Of a DNA stretch of 64,000 nucleotides, positions 1 to 54,808 are shown one piece after another (the first letter of the stretch is position 1; the number at the start of each line of letters is the position of its first letter). Source of the DNA: Eledone cirrhosa (Eukaryota); contig OZ024740.1 of NCBI GenBank assembly GCA_964016885.1, forward strand, positions 274,164,001-274,228,000, given 5' to 3'. The notes beneath the pieces are model-generated. The model saw nothing but the letters and a program-made list of their open reading frames with translations, had not been told where the DNA came from and made no database searches. The position numbers were made by a program, and so were the translations under genes.

Positions 1-59
1 ATATATATATATACGTATATATATATATGTATGTATATATATATATATACATATATAAT

Positions 60-640
60 ATATTGATGAGCAGAACAAACAAACATTAAACAATCCTTTA
101 AATAAATTAAAAAATAATTCAAATATCTACCTGTTCATAATGCTATTACCGGCGGTTTCCATCCACAAAGGATTGGAAATTCAGAGAATTTCCAACGGAA
201 AGTAGATTTCTTCAGATAGCTATTTCCATTCTATAGGACATTTGTCCCACGGTCAGCAAATATAATGCTAACTACCAGCACGTATGGGCTATAGCCGTTA
301 CAGTGACCCATACGTGACCTGGCCACTAGAGCAAGCGGGAATATTATAAACTTGTTGATGGCTTGGCTGTTAAAAAAATAGCAGTAAGCAACAACGAATT
401 TTTTCTCTACATAGATCGGAGAATATATAAAAATGAGGTAAATATCTCACTGAGTACTATGTACACACTGAGATATATAGGGTGTCTATAATATAATTGT
501 TGTTCTATGGTACTAATTCGAGATACCAGAACTATAAATTAATGAGCAGAACAAACAAACATTAAACAATCCTTTAAATAAATTTAAAAATAATTCAAAT
601 ATCTACCTGTTCATAATAATAATTTCCAACGGAACAACAA
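60..640 (-). mobile_element. Non-coding hammerhead-bearing element (Penelope-like pLTR/retrozyme-like) with partial tandem duplication, in (TA)n
   Basis: 76-bp direct repeat 66-141 / 542-617 (offset 476, one mismatch); hammerhead next to the first copy; (TA)n on both sides; internal hairpin cacgtatggg...cccatacgtg. Confidence 0.6.
142..220 (-). ncRNA. Type I hammerhead ribozyme (complete fold)
   Basis: Minus strand: GCTAT-CTGAAGA-[stem II ATCTAC...TTGGAAATTC tct GAATTTCCAA...GTGGAT]-GAAA-CCGCCGG-TA/ATAGC; all core nucleotides and three stems present. Confidence 0.85.
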
Positions 641-641
641 T

Positions 642-704: not shown

Positions 705-3304
705 AATGCTTTATTAAACAGTGCCATTCTAGCAACATAATTTTGATGGGAGACTTTAATCTACCCTGCGTCGATTGGTCTACATGTAGTTTGAAACCAG
801 GCTCCACAGCCTCAACCACTGACAAAGAAGCTGTCGAGTCACTTCTTGACTTCATGAAAGAGTTTTTCTTGTCCCATCTTGTCCTTGCACCAACGAGTCA
901 TCAGAAGAACATTCTGGATCTAGTGTTTAGTAACCACACTAACACTATACATAATATTACAGTGGAAAAAACCCTTCTCTCAAACCATGACATGTTTGTT
1001 TGTAACCTGAGATTCCACCAGCCGAAAGCCAATCCCAGGGTCCTCTTTCCAGCCCACCCATTTGATAACATGGATCTCCACAATGTCAACTGGGATGCAA
1101 TTATGAACGAACTGTCACATGTCTACTGGTCTTTTACACACGCACATACTTCCACCAACATCAAAACATCTTGGCAGATCTTTGTAGACACTGTCACAAA
1201 TATATGTACAAAACACACCCCACCAAAACCTTTGAACAAAACCAAGTGCAGTATCCCCCAAAACAGAAAAACAATTGTCAGAAAAATAAAAAGAACAAAC
1301 AAAAAAATTAACACACTAAAATACTGCCAACAGCAACACGCACATTCAATGGCTATCACCATGTTGAGTAAAAAAAATGTAACCTCCAGCAATGCATGTT
1401 GACCATCATCAATAACCAGAGAATAGCTGAAGAGAGGTGGGCCATTGAGAAAATCAAACTGAACCCCAAAGTGTTCTTCTCATTCGTTAAAAAACACAAG
1501 GTCACCGTCTCCACTGTTGGTCCCATAGTTGATGAAAGTGGCACACTCCAGGACAATGCCAAAACCATGGGCGAGATACTGCAGAAACAATACTGCTCTG
1601 TTTTCAGCAACCCAGATATGGCCAATCTGGGCCGTATCAGTGATATTAACCCCCAACACACTATATCAGACATAACGTTTGGCGCCCCTGATGTCTTAGC
1701 GGCAATAAACGATATTAAACACAATTCAGCAGTAGGCCCCGACAGGTTCCCTGCTTGTGTCCTGAAGGTGTGTCGACACCAACTTGCAACTCCTCTTGTT
1801 AATCTGTGGAGGAACTCACTGGACATTGGCTATATTCCTGAAAACTTTCTGGCCAGTCCGTTGTCCCAGTCTTCAAAAAGGGAAATAAGTCCATTGCAGT
1901 GAACTACCGTCCGATCTCACTCACCTCTCATATTATCAACGTATTTGAGAGGGTGGTGAGATCACGAATAGCCCACTTTCTTGAAAGCAACGGCCTGCTG
2001 AACTCCGACCAACATGGATTCCGTAATGGAAGGGACTGCCTAACGCAGCTCCTGCATCACTTTGACGATGTTTTGAGAGCCTTGGGAGAGGGTTCCAGCA
2101 CTGATGTCATCTACCTTGATTTCAGCAAGGCCTTCGACAGGGTTGATCATAAAATTCTACTGAAAAAAGTATCCAATGTTGGTGTCTCTGGAAGGTTACT
2201 ACAGTGGATCAAATGTTTCCTGACAGAAAGAACCCAGCATGTTGTAGTCGAAGGAGTAAAATCAAGCCCTGCCAAAGTCAGCAGTGGCGTCCCACAAAGC
2301 ACTGTGTTGGGCCCACTTCTTTTCATCATCTACATTAATGATATTACTGACATCATCAAACACAGCAACACCAGAATCTTCGCAGATGATTCCAAGCTCC
2401 AACGGGTCATCAATGAGGTGGGTGACCGGACTTGCCTTCAATCAGACCTACTGGCTGTTAACCAAAGGGCAGAGATGAATAATATGCTGCTGAATGAGGA
2501 TGAATTTGAACTAATCCACATTGGAAAAAAGGATGCCCTGAAACTACCACACTCTCTTCCTTCGGGTGAAACTCTAGTCGCTTCCAATAACATCAGAGAC
2601 CTGGGAGTAATTGTGGACAACAATATAATCTGGGCCACTCATACAAACAGCAAAGTTGATATGGCCCGCAGAGTGTGTCCCTGGATTCTCAGAACTTTCC
2701 AGTCGAGAGATATCCACATTGTTGTCCTTCTCGTCTCCACATTTGCCCGACCCCACCTTGAATACTGTTGTCCAATGTGGTCACCCCACACGAAACAAAG
2801 TATCATGAAAGTTGAAGTGCCCTAAAGGTCAATTACAAAAAATATAGTTGGCATGACAGGCCTTGACTATTAGGGTCGATTAGAAAAGCTCAAACTTTAT
2901 TCTCTTCAACGTCGCCGTGAGCGCTACATTATCTGTATGATGTGGAAAATATTCCATCAGCTTAGCCCAAATGATGTTGGCATCACTTTTAGTGTACACC
3001 CAAGGCTTGGGCCCCGTGCTATCCGCCCACGACAAAAATCCCACTCGCATCACATAACAACAATACGGCACAATTATTTCACCCCAATTGGCCCTGCACT
3101 CTTTAACATAACACCAAAACACACCAAAGCAGAGACAGACCCCATCGAGTTCAAGAAGTCTTTGGATAAATTCCTTCAAGAAATCCTGGATAAGCCCCCT
3201 ACACCCGGATATGCCTCCGTAAACAATAACTCTCTGCTCGAGTGGGCCATGATGCCCAAGCACTGATTTGTAAGACTTCACCAGATGGTGCTATTAAGTT
3301 AGAC
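705..3304 (+). mobile_element. 5'-truncated CR1/L2-group non-LTR retrotransposon, ORF2 (APE endonuclease + RT) disrupted by frameshifts and stops
   Basis: ORFs 743-1402 (MGDFNLP, LDLVFSN), 1396-1902, 1899-2825 (NYRPISLTS, YLDFSKAFDRVDH, GVPQSTVLGP, FADD), 2937-3266 (FKKSLDKFL); flanked by (TA)n. Confidence 0.9.
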
Positions 3305-3345: not shown

Positions 3346-3443
<98 letters not shown>

Positions 3444-3625
3444 CCATCTTTGTTTGTTTACTGTCTCGCTCGTTCCCCCTATTTACGTCCCAACGACTTT
3501 CTTTAGCCTTTGCTCGCACCAACCGGAGGTATATGGTATCTAAAGCGATGAAGGCTGGAAGATCACTGATGAAGGACTAAATTTATTGATATGTAACCCA
3601 TATGCAATCACGCAGCACGCCATAT

Positions 3626-3708
<83 letters not shown>

Positions 3709-5028
3709 AGTGTGTGTGTATACAACTACACGAAAGGAAAGGTAAACGTCAATATTATTATGCTCCCACTCACCGAAATAGAAATATTTATTGTTTCAGT
3801 CGTAATTCCTTCATCGGAAAAATATAAGAAGAAAAGAGACGAAATGGAAAGAAAAAAGGCGAAAATGTATAACATGTGTATTTCACATCAGTACCGTATT
3901 TTAAAATGTATGTGTGTGCTTTTCTTTCCTATGTGTATTTAACTTATAATTGTGATTAGAACAAAATTGCTTTGAAATATAATACTGTTTTGTCTGGAGA
4001 CAAATGACTGTCAGATGAAGGATGTCGTTTGTATTCTATTGGGTAATGTTTATTGAAAGTCACAGAATAAGAGCTGGATGTGACAACGAATAAATAAATT
4101 CGTGCCTTTTATCTTTCTTAAAGCTCTATGTAGATGTAAACCTGGGAATATATATGTTTTTACTTTTTGACCATTCGTTTGCACTTCACCTATGTCGGTC
4201 ATTCCTCCACCTCTTCTTTCTCACCCTCTCCTTCTTTACTTTTCTTTACATTTATATCATTTATATCAGCTGATATAGATAGAATCAAGTGAAGTTTAAA
4301 TACATTAGTTGTTAGTATTGTTGTTGCTGGTGTTGATGTCAGAAGATTTAAAATACAGCTCTGGAAGTATGTTTCTAGATATATGTGTTTGAGGTTTTTA
4401 TTTTTTAGCGGGGAACTGGTAATGGGGATGATGATGGGAGGAATGGACACAATGTCTTTCATACAGTCTCTATGGCCAGCTGCATCTCATAAAATATAAG
4501 GAATGCTGTAATTGTCAAGAGAAAGAAAAAAGGGAGAGAGATTTGCATGCAGAATAGACCTATTACACAATATACTCAAAGTGTTACAGACTTTGCTTTA
4601 GTAGCACTAATAAATTTAATCTTTGAAGCACTTATACTATGGTCAAATGCTTGCCATAATCTAATGTCCAACATTACTGGAAACAGACAGCTTAAAAGTA
4701 CTGATACCACCACTTGACACCAGAACAGCTTCTGTAACCACCCTGCTACCACCACCGATATCGACACCTTTACTTCTACTATTATTACCACTACTACAGT
4801 AGAAAATAGAGGCAGGAAAGAAGCGAGACAAATGAGATTCTAGTAAAAAGCAATTGCATTTGTGATAACTTCTACAAGTTGTGAGAAAATGATAAAACAA
4901 AATAAGAGGAAAAAAAGAGAGCAATAGAGTGATATTTTCTGGGAAGACAACAGGAGTTACTCAGAAATTTTGAGTCCCGTCTCAAAGTACTCTGCACACA
5001 CACACACACATACACATACACACACATA

Positions 5029-5062
<34 letters not shown>

Positions 5063-5164
5063 CATATATATATATGTACATATATATATATATATATACA
5101 CATATATATATATGTATGAATATTTATATATATATATACATATATATATATGTATATATATATA

Positions 5165-5468
5165 TTAGAAAGTGAGTTTTTTTTTACAAAATGAAAAATA
5201 ACCGAGGTGTCCTACACGAGTGAAAGTATAAAGAAAAAAAGATGAAATCGAAAATGCAACTGGAGTCTTATTTTTTTTTAAATATATATATTTATTTGGT
5301 TCTTTACCGGTTTCGCAGTTCTTCTGCTTTTCAAAAGTAGAGTTGAGATGGAGGGTCTGTGATTCACAGACCCTCCATCTCAACTCTACTTTTGAAAAGT
5401 AGAAGAACTGCGAAACCGGTAAAGGAATCAAATAAATATATATATATTCTTTTAAATAAGACTCCAGT
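5165..5468. mobile_element. Fold-back palindrome with a minimal hammerhead-like motif in each arm (Penelope-like pLTR fragment)
   Basis: Arms ~5259-5362 and 5364-5468 around centre ctgtga-t-tcacag; motif CTT-TTGAAAA-G(C/T)AG aagaa CTGC-GAAA-CCGG-TA/AAG at 5389-5424 (+) and 5302-5337 (-). Confidence 0.65.
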
Positions 5469-5469
5469 C

Positions 5470-5775
5470 TTAAAACTGCACTATTCACAAATACACTTGT
5501 GAATAGTGCAGTTTTAATATATATGTTGATTTAAAACTGCACTATTCACAAGTGTATTTTAACCTTCATATCATGTCTCCCTATTTTATCTGACGAAAAC
5601 GCAAATGTTATTGCATGATGATATTTGTTTTTGAAATGCGCATAATAAAATACATGGAACTCTTTTAACCATCTTTTGATCTTATATATTATTTATACTC
5701 CAGTCCTACAAACTGTAGAGTGCTTCTTATCCGATATCTGCATTGCTTTATTGTACTACAATAAAACTCACCTCC
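5470..5775 (+). mobile_element. Hammerhead-bearing non-coding element, same family as 20783-21191
   Basis: Near-identical to ~20950-21191; 5' end has repeated fold-backs of aactgcactattcaca; ends aaaactcacct before (TA)n. Confidence 0.8.
5582..5652 (+). ncRNA. Type I hammerhead ribozyme (complete fold)
   Basis: TATTTTAT-CTGACGA-[AAACGCAAATGTTATT gcat GATGATATTTGTTTTT]-GAAA-TGCGCA-TA/ATAAAATA; 8-bp stem I, long stem II with G-U pairs, palindromic stem III. Confidence 0.9.
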
Positions 5776-5830
<55 letters not shown>

Positions 5831-5834
<4 letters not shown>

Positions 5835-6020
5835 GACTAGAACTGTTTCCTTTGGGAGAAATCATCAGGAATCCCTGATGATTTCTCCCGAATGAAACCG
5901 TTAGTCCTGTAGAAGCTATTTCTACATTAAATATTGATACTCTGCTATGTATTGAGTACCTTACTTACTGTGGTAAGATAGATAAACTGTTACTAATTAA
6001 GACACCGCCTATATTTTCAA
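5831..6020 (+). mobile_element. Fold-back element with two inverted, degenerate minimal hammerhead cores
   Basis: Imperfect palindrome 5831-5910; + arm CTGATGA-tttctcccgaat-GAAA-ccgt-TA-gtcctgt; downstream gtattgagtac motif shared with the 11.6 and 19.9 kb elements. Confidence 0.55.
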
Positions 6021-6584
6021 TATATTAGTCTAGAATTATAGAAATTTGAGTGTAGATATGATAGGATAGAATGACCGATGGTGAAGCTTTAAATATTTGA
6101 ATGGTTAAATGAGCAATTGATTAAATTATTTCTTTTAACTTCAGCCAAATCCATATCTTTGAAGGCGGAGTTAAACGTTGATTTCATGTGGAGGAGTATA
6201 TTGGAGATGTAGAAGGGGAAAGTGACAATGGAACCAAGATTAAAATCGAAATCAAAACAAGAGTAGAATGGAATTGGAACAATCGAGAGGTCAATAAATG
6301 GTATAAAACCGTCATATATTTGGTGTAGTTAAAAGTTATCTTTATGGACGCAGGGGTGAAGGGTATGATAGCTTTTTATTTCTTTATTTATTTGTTTTGC
6401 TGGTCACTATTCGAAATTGTATGTTATGTGTCTGGGATGTGGAACTAATGTAGTTGTATCTGATACCTAATGTTTCTTTGTTCTGATTGTTGAGTTTAAT
6501 CCTACTGATTACTGTCACTATTTTAGTAGTGAAAGAGAAAGTGGGAGAGATCACACGAAGGAAATACGAAGGTGGATGTCAAGG

Positions 6585-11559: not shown

Positions 11560-11937
<378 letters not shown>

Positions 11938-19872: not shown

Positions 19873-20040
19873 ATAGGAAAATGTTTAACCCCGACGGCAG
19901 AACTCAAGCCGTTTCGACGTCTATTTCTAAAATAGGGGTTAAACATTTTCCTATTACCCACTCTACTACCCTAAGTATTGAGTACTCTGGTGCGTTATGG
20001 TCCATCTGGTTCCTTACCACACCTCCTTCGTTATAAATAC
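19873..20040 (+). mobile_element. Fold-back element with hammerhead 3' half, family of 11560-11760
   Basis: 20-bp arms ataggaaaatgtttaacccc / ggggttaaacattttcctat enclose (minus) gtcGAAAcggc ttgagttct gccgTC. Confidence 0.6.
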
Positions 20041-20746
20041 AGTGAAGGAGGCAGAGGATTTGATGCAGGAAGTTGAGGGTGGGGCTGAGAATGAATGAGA
20101 CTAAGACAAAATGTCTGGTAGAGAATGTTGAAAAGCCAGAAGGGATTACTAATGTAGGCGGGAAGCCGCTGAAATTAGTTGAGGACTTCCTGTATTTGGG
20201 AGGAAAGATTGGGAATACGGAAGATGATGTGGTTGAGAGGAAGAACAAAGCCTGGGCGGCGTGCCACAGTTTGAGATCGGTGTGGAAGTCGGACCTTCGT
20301 AGAGACCTGAAGATCCGCCTCTTGATTGCTGTAGTGGAGTCTGTGCTGCTGTACGGGTCTGAGACTTGGACATTGACCAAGAAACTCACCCAGATGGTGG
20401 ATGGGTGCTACACGAGTATCTGAGGATGGCTCTAAACATTAATCAGTATACACTGAGGATGAAAAACTCAGAGCTGTATGGGAGCCTCCCAAAAGTCAGC
20501 TCAAAAGTGACACAGAGGAGACTGAGGTTGGCTGGACATGCTCACCGACATCCAGAGTTGACACTGCATTCAGTGCTCCTGTGGGAGCCCCTGCATGGAC
20601 ACACTGGAAGTGGAAGACAAAGGTTAACGTATGTTGATGCCCTAAGGACAGACACTGATCTCTTGGAGACGCAGGACATGGCAGCGATAATGAGAGACAG
20701 AGACCGCTGGAGAGAACTCGTCCATGGATCTCGGGAATTTTACCCG

Positions 20747-20750
<4 letters not shown>
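20041..20750 (+). mobile_element. RTE-type LINE 3' fragment
   Basis: VGLRMNETKTK, VEDFLYLG, VLLYGSETWTLT, RRLRLAGH, RDRWRELV; ends at (TA)n. Confidence 0.85.
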
Positions 20751-20789
<39 letters not shown>

Positions 20790-20817
20790 ATCAAAAGATG
20801 GTTAAAAGAGTTCCATG

Positions 20818-20888
20818 TATTTTATTATGCGCATTTCAAAAACAAATATCATCATGCAATAACATTTGTGTTTTCATCAGATAAAATA
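20818..20888 (-). ncRNA. Type I hammerhead ribozyme
   Basis: Reverse complement of 21000-21070. Confidence 0.88.
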
Positions 20889-20999
20889 GGAAGACATGAT
20901 ATGAAGGTTAAAAAACACTTGTGAATAGTGCAGTTTAAAAATCAACATTTTTAACTGCACTATTCACAAGTGTTTTTTAACTTTTATATCATGTCTTCC

Positions 21000-21070
21000 T
21001 ATTTTATCTGATGAAAACACAAATGTTATTGCATGATGATATTTGTTTTTGAAATGCGCATAATAAAATA
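21000..21070 (+). ncRNA. Type I hammerhead ribozyme
   Basis: TATTTTAT-CTGATGA-[AAACACAAATGTTATT gcat GATGATATTTGTTTTT]-GAAA-TGCGCA-TA/ATAAAATA. Confidence 0.9.
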
Positions 21071-21787
21071 CATGGAACTCTTTTAACCATCTTTTGATCT
21101 TATATATTATGTATACTCCAGTCCTACAAACTGTAGAGTGCTTCTTATCCGATATCTGCATTGCTTTATTGTACTACAATAAAACTCACCTATATATATA
21201 CAATTATGTGTATCTGAGTACATTTTCAAGTGTGTTTTTCTTTATTTACGCTTCTTTATTTCCCTTTCCCTTCTCTGTCCCATCTAACAGGCAGCAGAAT
21301 ATACTTTCAGTGAGGTCGGTACAGTTAGGGACGGTATGAGCTTTGACTTTTTGAGTGGGAATGGTAAATGCAGAGATTGTTTTCGGTTACATATTTACAT
21401 ATCGGCGCATTAATATCGTTATAATAAGACGTGATCCCAAATGTTGATGAAAAAATACAAAATAAATAGCCTACACTATAAAATCATGCTCGATCATTTT
21501 CTAAAATGTATTTCCGAAATTTTATTTAATTTATCTTTTATTTTTTATGATTGTAATATTTTTCATTTTATTTTGTTTTGATTCAGTTGCATTACTTCAT
21601 TCCGGCAACTAAGCTGGTAAATTGTTAACATTGTATGAAATCTTACATTACACATGGAATTGTATACTAATGCCTTCTTACTAATTTGCAATGACTGAAA
21701 AAGATAATTACATATGAAGACAAAGACAAAATAAATAAATTAAAAGAAAAGTCCTTTAGAATTTGAAAAGCTGTAACAATGCATATG

Positions 21788-25135: not shown

Positions 25136-26014
25136 GTTTATAGTCTTAAGTTTGAAAATGTATCTACAAAATTTCATTTTAAAATATGCGTTATTTAAAA
25201 ATTACAAAGGAAAGCTGTCTTGTTATTTAATAATGTTAACAGTGTAAATTGCAAAATATACTCTATAAAATATTCTAGTTTTTGTATTAGTTATACATTA
25301 TAGAAATTATTTATGGAGTAAATGAGACTGAAGAAAGGATTCTTCATTTGCCAACAAATCTTCTTCGTATCGTGTCCACACTTATAAATGTTGCTTGTGG
25401 TGGTGATAGGATAAGCAGTATTTATCAATACTCCCAGGGCCGCAACGTGAACTCTCCTATCTTGATCCCAGCCAGCAAATAAAATCCAGCAAATACATAG
25501 TGAACAAATTTACAATTAACTGAAAAGTCCATTTGTATAGAAAGCCGTGTTATACACGTGGGTTAGGTTGCTAAGGTACCCACTTGCGTTGCATAACTTT
25601 CTATACAAACGAAATGTTGAGTTTCATAATCCACAATGCTTCCAGCAAACTTATCACACCTTATGACATTCAACAATTAGCCATGTCCACGCAAAAATGA
25701 TTTGAGTGGGAATCTCACCATTCACTAGATTAACACAATTCTATGAATGTTTCACAAATATATGGTTGTATAAGAAACCAAATTCTTTACAATTACCCAG
25801 GTGCCTTATAGCAAATGTTGACAGACAATGGATAATAGACTTCGCTCACTATGGGTCTTTACTGACATCATTTCAATAAAGAATATGAAACTAAATACAG
25901 ATATTAGCTTATCAAATTAATCTAAATATGATACTAAATTAACGTGCCATAATTGGTAATTCATTTTGATTTCAACGTACCAATATTGAAAGATTACCGG
26001 CATCCCTATATGAT

Positions 26015-34749: not shown

Positions 34750-36840
34750 ACAGATAGAGACATTCAATGTAGAAGAGTACTGGGAGTTCCTAAAAATAAC
34801 TTACTAGAGGCGACAGATGAGATTTGTGGCTGGAGTAAGACCACAGGCAGGAGGAGAGTGACTTGGTGGTGGAACAATAAAGTAGATGAGGCCAAGAGAC
34901 AGGCATGGAAAGAATGAAAGAATGGGGGGAGCAGGGTACATTACATAGAGACTGGGAGGGAAGCTAGGCGACAAGTATACTTAGCTAGGAGGGAAGCAGA
35001 GGATAGAAAATTCAAGCATGTTTTGCAACATGAGGACCAGAAACAGGTGTTCAAGATTGTGAGGCAGTGTGTCAGAGAGAATTGTGATGTCATTGGAGAG
35101 AAGTGTATCCAGAAGGATAAAGGTGAGCTTGCCCTCACAAGTGCTGAGAAGAAAGATGCGTGGAAGAGCTATTAAGATAGATTACTAAATGAGGAGAATG
35201 CATGGGAAGAAGAGACCCTACCCCAAGTAGACCCTATAGAGGGGGCGGCAGTACAAGTCAGCAGCAGCGTAGTAAGTAAAGCAATCAAAGATATGAAGAC
35301 GGGGAAGGCAACCGGTCCATCGGATATATCTGCCGAGATGCTGAAGGCATCTGGGTCGGTAGGTCACACTATAACCACACGTATTGTTAACCAGGTAATA
35401 CTAGAAGGTGTCATACCAAAGGATTGGTGCAGTAGCATCATTGTCAACTGTTACAAATGTAAAGGTGATGCACTAGATAGAGGAAACTATAGAGGTATAA
35501 CACTGATGGACCAGGTCATAAAAGTAACAGAAAGAGTTATAGCACATTTGATTAGAGACCGGGTGAAACTAGATGAGATGCAATTTGGGTTTGTACGAGG
35601 AAGAGGCACCACTGATGCCCTCTTCCTTGTGAGGCAGTTACAGGAAAAGCGCCTAGCTAAAAGTAAGCCACTCTACCTGGCATTCGTCAATCTCGAGAAA
35701 GCCTTTGACAGAGTTCCCCATGCTATAATCTGGTGGGCTCTTAGAAAACTAGGAGTAGATGAACGGCTTGTATAGGGGAGCAGTCAGCAAAGAGCCACAG
35801 GAAACAAGTACCACCAATCTCTGGGAGGGCTCTGTAGAAACAGTAGACAGCTTCTGCTACCTAGGTGACCGAATTAGCAGCGGAGGTGGGTGTTCAGAAA
35901 GTACAATAACTAGGGTAAGAACAGGATGGAAGAAGTTCAGGGAGTTACTGCCACTGCTAGCTGCAAAAGGCTTTTCCCTCAAAATGAAAAGCAGACTGTA
36001 TGATGCGTGTATACGAACAGCAATGTTACATGGGAGTGAGACCTGGCCGCTGAATGTGGAAGACTTGCGTAGATTAGAAGGAAATGTAGCCTGCATGCTC
36101 CGATGGATGTGTAATACTTAGCTAGGAGGGAAGCAGAGGATAGAAAATTCAAGCATGTTTTGCAACATGAGGACCAGAAACAGGTGTTCAAGATTGCGAA
36201 TGGCAAAGCATAAATGAATTGAGAGAGAGACTGAGCATAAGAGGAATCAAATGCTGTGTGCAGGAGAGGCGGTTGTGTTGGTATGGATATGTGATGCGTA
36301 TGAAGGATGACAGCTGCATAAAAAGGTGCAGAGCACTAGAAGTCGATGGAAACCGCGGAGTAGGGAGACCCAAGAAGACCTGGAATGAGATGATAAAAGC
36401 CGACCTTACCCAATTACACCTCTCAAAGGTGATGACACATGACTGTGACCTCTGGCGTCACGCAGTAATGCAGAATACCCGACCCCCCCCCCCCCACACA
36501 CACACACACACACTCCACCCCACGGGTACAAGCCAAAGCTGAAGCATATAGACGATATGCCCCCACACCCTCCCACTGAAAAGTTGTCATGGAGGTGCCA
36601 TGGCAAAAAAGCACCCAGCCTACACTGTAAAGTGGTTGTGTAGGTGCCACAGTAAAAAAGCACCCAGTACTCACTGTAAATGAGGTTGGTGTTAGAAAGG
36701 GTATCCAGCTGTAGAAATCAAGCCAGAATCAGTTCCCATATGAGCAAGACAATGTCAGCTGACTGGACACTGCCCACAACAGGACAACCCGTCTAACCCA
36801 TGCTAGCGTGGAAGAACGGATGTAAAACGGTGATGATGAT
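34750..36840 (+). mobile_element. RTE-clade LINE, internally deleted, long 3' UTR, (GAT)n tail
   Basis: GNYRGITLMD, QFGFVRGRGTTDA, FVNLEKAFDRVP, MLHGSETW, LCWYGYV; YADD/PHD segment missing at ~35770-35795. Confidence 0.9.
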
Positions 36841-52215: not shown

Positions 52216-54134
52216 CATCATCATCATCATCATCAGGTTTAGCGTCCGTGTTCCACGCTTGCATGGGTTTGGACAGGGGTAGTCCCACTTGAGGCAAGAG
52301 TGGTTGTCTTGCTCGCATAGGACTGTCTGGCGGGTTTTCTACAGCTGGATGCCCTTCCTAACACCAACCACATTTACAGTGTGGGGCTGGGAGGTTTTTA
52401 CCGTGTTGCCTACACGGCCACATTACAGCGTGGACTGTCTGGCGGGTTTTCTACAGCTGGATGCCCTTCCTAACACCAACCACATTTACAGTGTGGGGCT
52501 GGGAGGTTTTTACCGTGTTGCCTACACGGCCACATTACAGCGTGGACTGTCTGGCGGGTTTTCTACAGCTGGATGCCCTTCCTAACACCAACCACATTTA
52601 CAGTGTGGGGCTGGGAGGTTTTTACCGTGTTGCCTACACGGCCACATTTACAGCGTGGACTGTGTGTTTTTTGTCGTGACACCTACACGATCTCATTTGT
52701 TTCGGCCTGGATGTTGTGGGACCAACATAACTGTACATTGAAAGGGGCGGTGTGGATGGGGTGGAGGTGGTGGGACGGGGGGGGTGTTTTGATAGAGATG
52801 CCTACTGACTGTAGTAGGTTTTTACTTTGTATTTAGGTAAGGCGGGTCTTCTCTATTACTGAGTACCGCCAAAGGTCTCGGTCCAGTGACATTGTCTTGG
52901 AGAGGTGTAAGCGTGTGAGGTCGGAATTTATCAGCTCGTCCCATGTTTTTCTGGGTCTGCCTACTCCGTGGCTACCGTCTATCTTTATTGCCCTGCACTT
53001 TGTTATACAGCTGTCGTATTTCATGCGCATCACGTGACCGTACCAACGTAGCCTTCTCTCGAGTAAACAACATCTGATCCCTCTTATTTCTAATTTTTTC
53101 CTTAGTTCGTTTATGCTTTGCCGTTCACGTATATTACTATTGCACATCCAGCGGAGCATGCAAGCTTCGTTCCTCTCTAGTCTGCGTATATCCTCTGCAC
53201 ACAATGCCCAGGTCTCACTGCCATGCAGCATTGCTGTTCGTATGCAGGCATCGTATAACCAGCCTTTCATTTTTAGGGAGAACCCTCTGAAAGTACAGTA
53301 GCTAGAGTTCTGACTCTAGCTACTGTACTTTCAGAGCACCCTCCCCCACTGCTGATTTTGTCACCCAGGTAACGGAAGCTGTCCACTATTTCTATAGAAC
53401 CCTCTGCGCAGTTGAAGGAGCTAGTATTTTGTGGGCACTTGCTGCTACTTATTGCACCAGAGCACCGGCCACATGTAAAATCTATGTTCTTAGTTAGCTT
53501 ACCTGTGATCCCACTACATCTTTTATGCACCCATACTTTGCATTTGGGACATAAAATGGAGTTTCTACCTACGCCTTTCCTACACACTGAGCATGGCCAT
53601 TTCCCAGATGGGACTGCCGCCATATTTTCTTTCCTACAAACTAGAACTTTTGTCTTAGCCAGGTTAATTTTAAGGCCTTTTGATTCTAGGCCGTGCTTCC
53701 ATGTTTGGAATTTCTTCTCTAGTTCGGTCATTGATTCAGCTATGAGCGTTAGATCATCTGCGTATAGGAGTTCCCATGGGCAGCCGGTCTTGAACTCCTC
53801 TGTTATAGCCTGAAGGGCAATAATAAATAGTAGGGGGCTAAGAACAGAGCCCTGATGGACACCAACTTTTACGCTAAACTCTTCACTATATTCGTTGTTA
53901 ATTCTAACCTTACTGACTGTTTCTTTATACATGGCTTGTATAGCTCTCACAAGCCATTCGTCAACACCTAGTTTTCTAAGAGACCACCAGATAATGGAAC
54001 GGGGGACTCTGTCGAAGGCTTTCTCCAAGTCGACGAAAGCTAAGTATAGGGGTTTACTTTTAGCTAGGTACTTCTCCTGTAGTTGTCGTACAATGAAAAG
54101 AGCGTCTGTGGTACTTTTGCCTGATACTTTTGCC
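52216..54134 (-). mobile_element. Young 5'-truncated RTE LINE (RT + PHD finger + long 3' UTR)
   Basis: ORFs 53273-54028 (EKAFDRVP, VGVHQGSVLSP, LYADD, PHD) and 52833-53270; (GAT)n tail. Confidence 0.95.
52321..52657. repeat. 112-bp tandem triplication in the RTE 3' UTR
   Basis: Units start at 52321, 52433 and 52545; essentially identical. Confidence 0.95.
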
Positions 54135-54808
54135 TGTTATGTATAAGGTTAATGATTGTTGTGTGAAGAAGTGCCAGGAATCCCAGTGGAAAGAAGCTGC
54201 ATTAGATGTAGACCAAGAAAGGCCAGGGTACAGGTGGTGAGAGCTGATGTCAAATTGCTGAGACTCATAGAGGAGAGGGAAAAGGAACATAGTGAGTGGA
54301 GAGATACTGTGCTGAAAAGGACCCAACCAACCCATGCAAGATTGGAAAAGCAGACGTAAAAATGATGAAGATGTTTCCACTCTATTACTGTCTCAATGAT
54401 TCTGAGTAACTTTTTCATATTTATGCAGAAGATATTATTTTAAAGGAGAAAGCATTGAATTCTAAATGAACTCAATGCTGTGAAGAGAGCATAAAGTACT
54501 ATATCAATGCTAGTACATAACTGATACATCTTTTATTTATTTCCCCTAGAAGAATGAATGTTAAAGTCCACCCTAGCTGAAATTGAACTTAGAACATAAT
54601 GAGGTGTAACCCAATGCCCCATGACATCTTTTCTGATAGCTTGCTGATATTGTAAAATCCATAGTCATTGTTAAATTGAATTGGTATTAATCTCCTACTA
54701 ACTTTATCAAGTCCATAAAAATGAAGTGAAAATATCTTTATTGTCTCTCTATTATTTCATAATATCAGATGATATTACCATGATATTAGCTTTTTCTTTT
54801 TATTTCAG

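Follow-up and report, generated by a model that had tools for sequence, protein, structure and literature searches.

The three short elements that lie side by side at 5166-5992 of the window (the whole analysed stretch of 64,000 nucleotides of Eledone cirrhosa DNA), here called A, B, and C, are very probably 5′-truncated 3′ ends (pLTR, tail, and inverted partial copy) of three families of Penelope-like elements (PLEs) whose coding parents reside elsewhere in the genome, as found for A and B and as is likely for C, and which most likely entered one TA run in separate events of target-primed reverse transcription. An earlier note on this DNA had rightly read the motifs as PLE-type hammerheads of distinct families with PLEs as the motor, but had further proposed an undescribed system of noncoding elements moved in trans. 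Neither proposal was borne out: parents of A, B, C2 (a subfamily of C), and a fourth family, D, were found in cis with reverse transcriptase (RT) and GIY-YIG ORFs, and hammerheads in pLTRs, truncated copies, inverted copies, tails, and TA targeting have already been published (PMC4209133, PMC8557442). As judged from sequence, this is a well-described kind of element represented by new families, with predicted hammerhead activity and no new ribozyme system; it constitutes neither a new element class nor a new ribozyme class.

The elements are arranged between and beside two TA runs (Table 1), and inspection of the sequence located them and their motifs where the earlier note had placed them. 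Its statement that all of them abut TA holds for the 3′ ends of A and B and for the arm of C, but fails for the 3′ end of C and for the A/B joint, where the two meet arm to arm at 5468/5470 with no intervening TA. The earlier count of five families within 21 kb was correct: besides A, B, and C, these are E and D, the latter present at both 11.6 and 19.9 kb. A descriptor scan of the window detected five complete hammerhead cores of type I, of which the A body, the A arm, and B hold one each and the second copy of B (20.8-21.1 kb) holds two, compared with a mean of 0.1 cores in 30 block-wise dinucleotide shuffles, and a wider descriptor scan additionally picked up element E at 0.1 kb. An Rfam scan of the window returned no hammerhead or other family at threshold, hairpin matches being sub-threshold only.

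Table 1. Positions of the PLE-derived elements, their parts, and the adjoining TA runs in the window.
Feature	Positions	Strand	Remarks
Family E element	58-641	-	type I hammerhead; 84-nt direct repeats at both ends
(TA)n target run	5026-5165		at 3′ end of element A
Element A, whole	5166-5468
A body	5166-5362	-	truncated pLTR and tail, tail ending at TA run
Hammerhead A	5305-5334	-	core to cleavage site, descriptor scan
Inverted arm of A	5364-5468	+	carries second hammerhead, 5392-5421 (+)
Element B, whole	5470-5778
Double fold-back of B 5′ part	5470-5517		joined directly to A arm; sense piece 5470-5490, antisense arm 5489-5517
B body	5520-5778	+	truncated pLTR and tail
Hammerhead B	5582-5652	+	core to cleavage site 5590-5644, descriptor scan
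(TA)n run	5779-5831		from B tail to C arm
Element C, whole	5831-~5992
Inverted arm of C	5831-5868	-
C body, subfamily C1	5872-5992	+	core 5875-5881; GAAA 5894-5897
GAGTRC tail word	5954-5959	+	in C; also in B (5718-5723), D, and three other families
D copy with inverted arm	11564-11760	-
Second D-type copy	19874-20035	+	no complete hammerhead
Second B copy	20780-21192	+	two complete hammerheads

Hammerhead A combines the U3-A8 core variant with a 4-bp helix II, a palindromic helix III (ACCGGT), and a helix I of only 3 contiguous bp, and its predicted cleavage follows GUA. Hammerhead B has an 8-bp helix I, a CUGACGA core at 5590-5596, a long helix II (~16 pairs), and a palindromic helix III (ATGCGCAT), with cleavage predicted after 5644; in the second B copy, the inverted arm measures 160 nt and is 98% complementary. 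The hammerheads of C and D are incomplete in the window. In C, missed by both descriptor scans, helix I has lost its 5′ strand to the inversion, with 1 bp remaining, and helix III is damaged, the hammerhead being complete at the family level, with a 6-bp helix I in intact copies. In both D copies the sequence begins within helix II and the first core half is absent, and longer D copies elsewhere possess a full U3-A8 hammerhead. The hammerhead of family E (58-641, minus strand) displays a long helix II. The 19 variant places listed for A, B, and C include a single core one, at the free position 7 of B, a number too small for significance; in helix II of B, each of the four listed variants replaces a G-U by a Watson-Crick pair of the predicted fold, and the helix I differences between subfamilies C1 and C2 are paired changes. 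Monomer hammerhead folds were mostly no better than those of shuffles, as expected for dimer-type motifs. Within 1.52 Mb of fetched loci, 365 distinct hammerhead matches formed 44 clusters, 21 of them with at least two members, a count drawn from loci enriched for TA nests and in which some singletons may be due to chance. Several hammerhead families also show a GTAAGT-like splice donor 10-40 nt past the cleavage site, and in C2 and D a pyrimidine tract with AG stands right after the tail end; these splice-like signals hint at 5′-UTR introns.

A search of the species' own 3.0-Gb genome identified A, B, C, and D each as a dispersed repeat. Among the best 40 scored places per family, chosen from 1636 (A), 230 (B), 1921 (C), and 1766 (D, the 11.6-kb family) first-look candidates, identity amounted to 96-100% for A, B, and D copies and 91-95% for C; the repeats are mostly young. 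In one run, summed contig depth reached 10^5-10^6 over the elements versus ~11 in the flanks, a figure that does not represent copy number. Palindromes by TA runs assemble poorly, and no contig of the examined run covers the whole stretch, so that hairpins and nests might be suspected to be assembly or library artefacts; this is scarcely credible, given that arms carry substitutions relative to bodies, end at family-specific fixed sites, and match the published PLE layout, and that a contig of single-copy depth covers 5947-6200.

The anatomy of the insertions was surveyed at 30 loci per family, which were the best hits of BLAST-like searches and not random draws. In family A, 26 of these loci had (TA)4 no more than 30 nt from the 3′ end; the corresponding numbers were 29 for B, 20 for C, and 29 for D. 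This (TA)n junction check, with a TA-flanked majority in all four families, upholds the TA targeting inferred in the earlier note. An inverted arm accompanied the body at 12 (A), 20 (B), 16 (C), and 26 (D) loci. The modal 3′ end was used by 28/30, 21/30, 22/30, and 27/30 copies, and the modal arm end by 9/12, 16/20, 8/16, and 26/26 arms, respectively. Body end and arm end are both family-fixed, ~60-85 nt apart allowing for TA overlap, and the 5′ ends at the same loci are tightly clustered within each family. Long inverted repeats with TA on both sides might also be expected of MITE-like non-autonomous DNA transposons with a TA target, their hammerhead-like words having arisen by chance; however, the arms are unequal in length, their inner meeting points are variable, many copies are armless, and this reading, which we regard as virtually without prospect, is refuted by copies running into RT/GIY-YIG ORFs.

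Following other copies upstream proved decisive. The earlier note had found no visible partner ORF, which is correct for the window but not for the rest of the genome, where copies were extended upstream. At several loci, A copies are preceded at 1.1 kb by a GIY-YIG ORF in the same orientation and, further upstream, by an RT. The A parent, ~4.7 kb in length, runs from a forward pLTR and tail through ORF1, ORF2, and a 1.05-kb 3′ UTR to a second pLTR, and the hammerhead spacing of ~4.65-4.7 kb at three family A loci (L257, L259, and L260) represents tandem pLTRs. ORF2 (775 aa, with 725 homologues) matches Pfam RVT_1 with an E value of 2e-6, just below the curated cut-off, and GIY-YIG with an E value of 3e-6, above the curated cut-off. 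It features an RT DKG motif, a CX4CxxC linker, and CCHH within the C-terminal GIY-YIG, all of which are shared by Neptune/Nematis PLEs in the accessible part of PMC8557442, and its zinc motifs would place A in the Neptune/Nematis type. Unlike these PLEs, A has a separate ORF1 (~385-409 aa), overlapped by ORF2 in the -1 frame, and a U_UUU_UUA site; a figure legend in PMC8557442, within the part available, permits a frameshifted ORF1, clade unstated. The heptamer occurs in-frame at the ORF1/ORF2 overlap in L264:2600-2720 and four other A copies, identical in 5/5, and the fold downstream of it was no better than shuffles. The accessible portions of PMC6431247 and PMC5408684 added nothing on PLE frameshifting. 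ORF1 itself had no Pfam match, and matches in the atlas to gag-like clusters, all below 0.9, offer no more than a lead.

The B parent (L191) consists, in order, of an inverted pLTR and tail, a forward pLTR and tail, an ORF, a 3′ UTR, a pLTR, and a TA run; its period is 3669 bases, which makes a 3.67-kb element, and the D parent (L190) has the same layout, its pLTRs flanking a Hydra-type ORF. The proteins of B and C2 carry the full Hydra set, comprising a CxCX5C linker, DKT, an RWK-like motif, and CxxC and CxH in the endonuclease, with no CCHH; the D ORF, 57% identical to that of C2, has the Hydra motifs over the RT part seen. The Hydra-type ORFs had no Pfam match above cut-off, and the class assignment therefore rests on motifs and alignment, by which the B parent is a Hydra-clade PLE. 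The available part of PMC8557442 (Craig et al. 2021) describes the Hydra clade along with inverted copies, tails, and TA targeting, and lists Hydra-1_Obim of Octopus bimaculoides with an annotated hammerhead. B, C2, and D have in common with this clade the single ORF with a C-terminal GIY-YIG, the linker and zinc motifs given above, the RWK-like and DKT motifs, the pLTR hammerhead, the (TA)n target, the inverted 5′ copy, and the tail. Most of the A and B parents observed contain stops or frameshifts.

For C, the connection to a coding element was established through C2. A tail pattern without following TA gave 25 matches, and 3 of the 11 inspected led to a Hydra-type ORF, all in subfamily C2. 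At L392 the C2 tail continues into a 729-aa open frame, and at L393 the order is tail, ORF, and 3′ pLTR. The window copy belongs to C1; on its 3′ side there is no TA run, family likeness ending at 5974 with a remnant to ~5992. In the search for a full-length C1 parent, 8 of 10 upstream fetches had no collinear PLE ORF, L187 and L304 proved to be another family, and a pattern for a C1 tail-to-ORF junction found 0 matches; L396 alone joins C1 to an ORF fragment, which is 80% identical to the C2 ORF. The upstream walk failed because 3′ UTRs hold long microsatellite tracts. Two other candidate partners were discarded. A Neptune-type ORF (L114/L187) has a C hammerhead downstream in 2/25 copies only; the third pattern match beside it was a different sequence, and most of its other copies end at a TA run ~600 bp past the stop. 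An RTE-type 3′ end upstream of C (L295) showed the link in the two arms of L295 only, among 30 loci, and one further locus of the 30 has a C hammerhead 860 bp from an RTE-type 3′ end. The discarded Neptune-type ORF belongs to a separate PLE family, observed at L187:700-2800 and L207-L231, which carries a hammerhead of its own ~450 bp past the stop and has TA-run ends.

It is conceivable, albeit rather unlikely, that some short copies, above all those of C1, derive from non-autonomous master RNAs mobilized in trans by PLE proteins, such RNAs being either a pLTR with a microsatellite-rich leader or retrozyme-like monomers. C1 reaches ~0.9-1.1 kb upstream into GT/TA tracts with the ORF absent in most fetched copies, 5′ ends cluster tightly per family, and non-autonomous PLEs and PLE-derived retrozymes are published precedents. 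In addition, L395:1800-3100 (G000:C9:23835300-23836600) contains tandem 195-nt monomers and an inverted pair, each monomer comprising the C2 hammerhead, the tail, and the first ~50 nt of the ORF, which looks like a retrozyme-like array derived from a pLTR. However, long microsatellite tracts are also found in the 3′ UTRs of coding A, B, and C2 elements, L396 ties C1 to an ORF fragment, and the short copies of A, B, and D run collinearly with pLTRs from full-length copies. L395 resembles the non-LTR retrozymes whose type I hammerheads are related to PLE pLTRs (bioRxiv 10.64898/2026.07.22.740005, as far as its available text goes), whereas the three window elements, single bodies with inverted arms, are not the tandem noncoding monomers that define retrozymes.

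Truncation of PLEs during target-primed reverse transcription, which we prefer, could proceed as follows. A tandem pLTR-ORF-pLTR copy would be transcribed and would supply an RT and GIY-YIG protein, as the ORFs seen in sequence suggest. The endonuclease would nick (TA)n, the TA flanks being observed and the nicking extrapolated from PMC8557442 and PMC11167929. The RT would then start within the RNA at two fixed sites ~60-85 nt apart, each beside a short TA-like patch, the body taking its tail end from one start site and the inverted arm its end from the second; the fixed ends are observed, and their assignment to RT initiation sites follows the anole PLE by analogy. Synthesis would usually halt 35-140 nt upstream of the hammerhead cleavage site, the two strands would join as a hairpin, and each insertion would leave TA runs usable by the next family, through which nests build. 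The hammerheads would be pLTR passengers with predicted dimer cleavage via the palindromic helix III, and since copies span the cleavage site, cleavage is unnecessary for making copies. In the accessible part of Frangieh et al. 2024 (PMC11167929), the green anole Poseidon PLE uses two internal RT start sites in vitro, and it shares with the present families two fixed ends per family, an AT-rich target, and the dispensability of hammerhead cleavage. In Poseidon, the RT starts within the ORF at sites lacking homology to the target, whereas the putative start sites here are upstream of the ORF start, beside the TA-like patches.

Variants shared between arm and body bear on the origin of the hairpins. 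In B, discordance with the body was 17/78 for its own arm and 794/1482 for other arms (0/5000 permutations), and by reading of the junctions all 17 correspond to one site at which the arm runs into TA; B arms thus share the subfamily variants of their own bodies far more than those of others, which points to one template lineage for both. Arms differed from their own bodies at 49/119 sites in A and 30/90 in C, the latter not different from random (p 0.25), so that variant sharing is weak in A and absent in C; D had no informative sites. In the window, the A arm is 90% alike to the A body and ends at ~+47 from the cleavage site, the family mode being +79. The A-B pair might represent a single insertion in which cDNAs of two families were joined by cross-family twin priming, since the joint of A arm and B fold-back has no TA, both arms fall below the family mode, and the A and B 3′ ends match at 13/16 bases. 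We consider this improbable: it is a single case, for which two independent insertions followed by a deletion between them, or B having landed in the AT-rich arm of A, would account equally, and the A and B RTs are only ~22% identical. Two separate insertions remain our preferred account of the pair.

The tails contain short recurrent words. GAGTRC shows no variation across seven tail segments that were picked for having it. Sharing of gtattgagtac by C and D, claimed earlier, is above chance (0/400 shuffles) and is attributable to kinship, their ORFs being 57% identical. As for the words proposed to link A and B, aaaactcac alone is within chance (79/400), but an end-anchored match of the two 3′ ends exceeds it (13/16 bases; 1/2000 shuffles, six pairs tested); as a guess, this match across clades reflects convergence on an initiation signal. 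RNAalifold on the seven segments gave no consensus structure (0 pairs) and single tail folds were no better than shuffles, which leaves a tail hairpin as a guess. An intron branch point at aaaactcac with a 3′ AG after the A tail was rejected, the AG being present in 1/6 read-through copies. We tentatively suggest, as an idea with less than even prospects, that dozens of coexisting hammerhead PLE families in the genome share a short tail cis code, consisting of a clade-wide RCTC...GAGYRC in Hydra-type families, to which a similar word can be seen in the consensus listed immediately before Hydra-1_Obim in the available part of PMC8557442, and of a common 3′-terminal signal in A and B. If so, the code would mark RT binding and the start site and permit cross-mobilization between clades, and retrozyme-like tandems could bud directly from pLTRs (cf. 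L395).

Much of this agrees with published PLE hammerheads. According to the accessible text of PMC4209133, pLTRs carry hammerheads, a genome has many families of them, truncated copies are scattered, and pairs on opposite strands occur; U3-A8 is described there as a natural compensatory core variant from Schistosoma PLEs, and cephalopods are not named. The present hammerheads resemble these: they are of type I, have a palindromic helix III, include the U3-A8 variant, form many sequence families in one genome, mostly as single truncated copies, and occur as pairs on opposite strands separated by 100-700 bp. They differ in the longer helix II of B (~16 pairs). Short 5′-truncated PLE insertions are described in the available parts of both PMC4209133 and PMC8557442. 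Compared with the Hydra clade of the latter, likewise as far as accessible, the B unit is longer (3.67 kb vs <3 kb), as are the tails (~60-85 nt vs 30-40), B and D have a long helix II, and the hammerhead listed for Hydra-1_Obim differs from those of B, C, and D, which are thus different families. The accessible part of the O. vulgaris repeat annotation (PMC13282606) records 31 recently active PLE families and does not use the word hammerhead, and, apart from PMC8557442, our literature search yielded no work on hammerheads in the PLEs of cephalopods. The 44 hammerhead clusters in 1.5 Mb, the ~60-85 nt tails, and the shared GAGTRC word may be new details, as may the 13/16 match of A and B 3′ ends across clades and the 195-nt pLTR-derived tandem array. 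For annotation, thousands of short TA-flanked hairpins become assignable to PLE families instead of MITEs, SINEs, or unknown repeats, and the abundance of young families whose ends are fixed offers a good basis for studying the formation of PLE arms and tails and the role of hammerheads.

Several other features were noted in and around the window. At the fetched loci, TA nests contain several families each, and many more TA-flanked fold-back elements adjoin the fetched copies (L007, L013, L029, L064, and others). A TA-flanked element with a CTGATGA word at 3443-3630 contains no complete hammerhead by either scan and has by-eye likeness in L338 and L350. A decayed LINE with endonuclease and RT fragments, which we take to be CR1/L2-like, occupies 707-3290 between TA runs; LINE fragments presumably of RTE type are located at 20040-20750, 35176-36542, and 52833-54136, the first stopping at the TA run that adjoins the 21-kb B copy. 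On the minus strand, 25405-25480 weakly matches the CPEB3 (HDV-like) ribozyme model below threshold (E 0.39). A SINE-like repeat family of ~190 nt is abundant, with at least 13 copies between 7943 and 62020.
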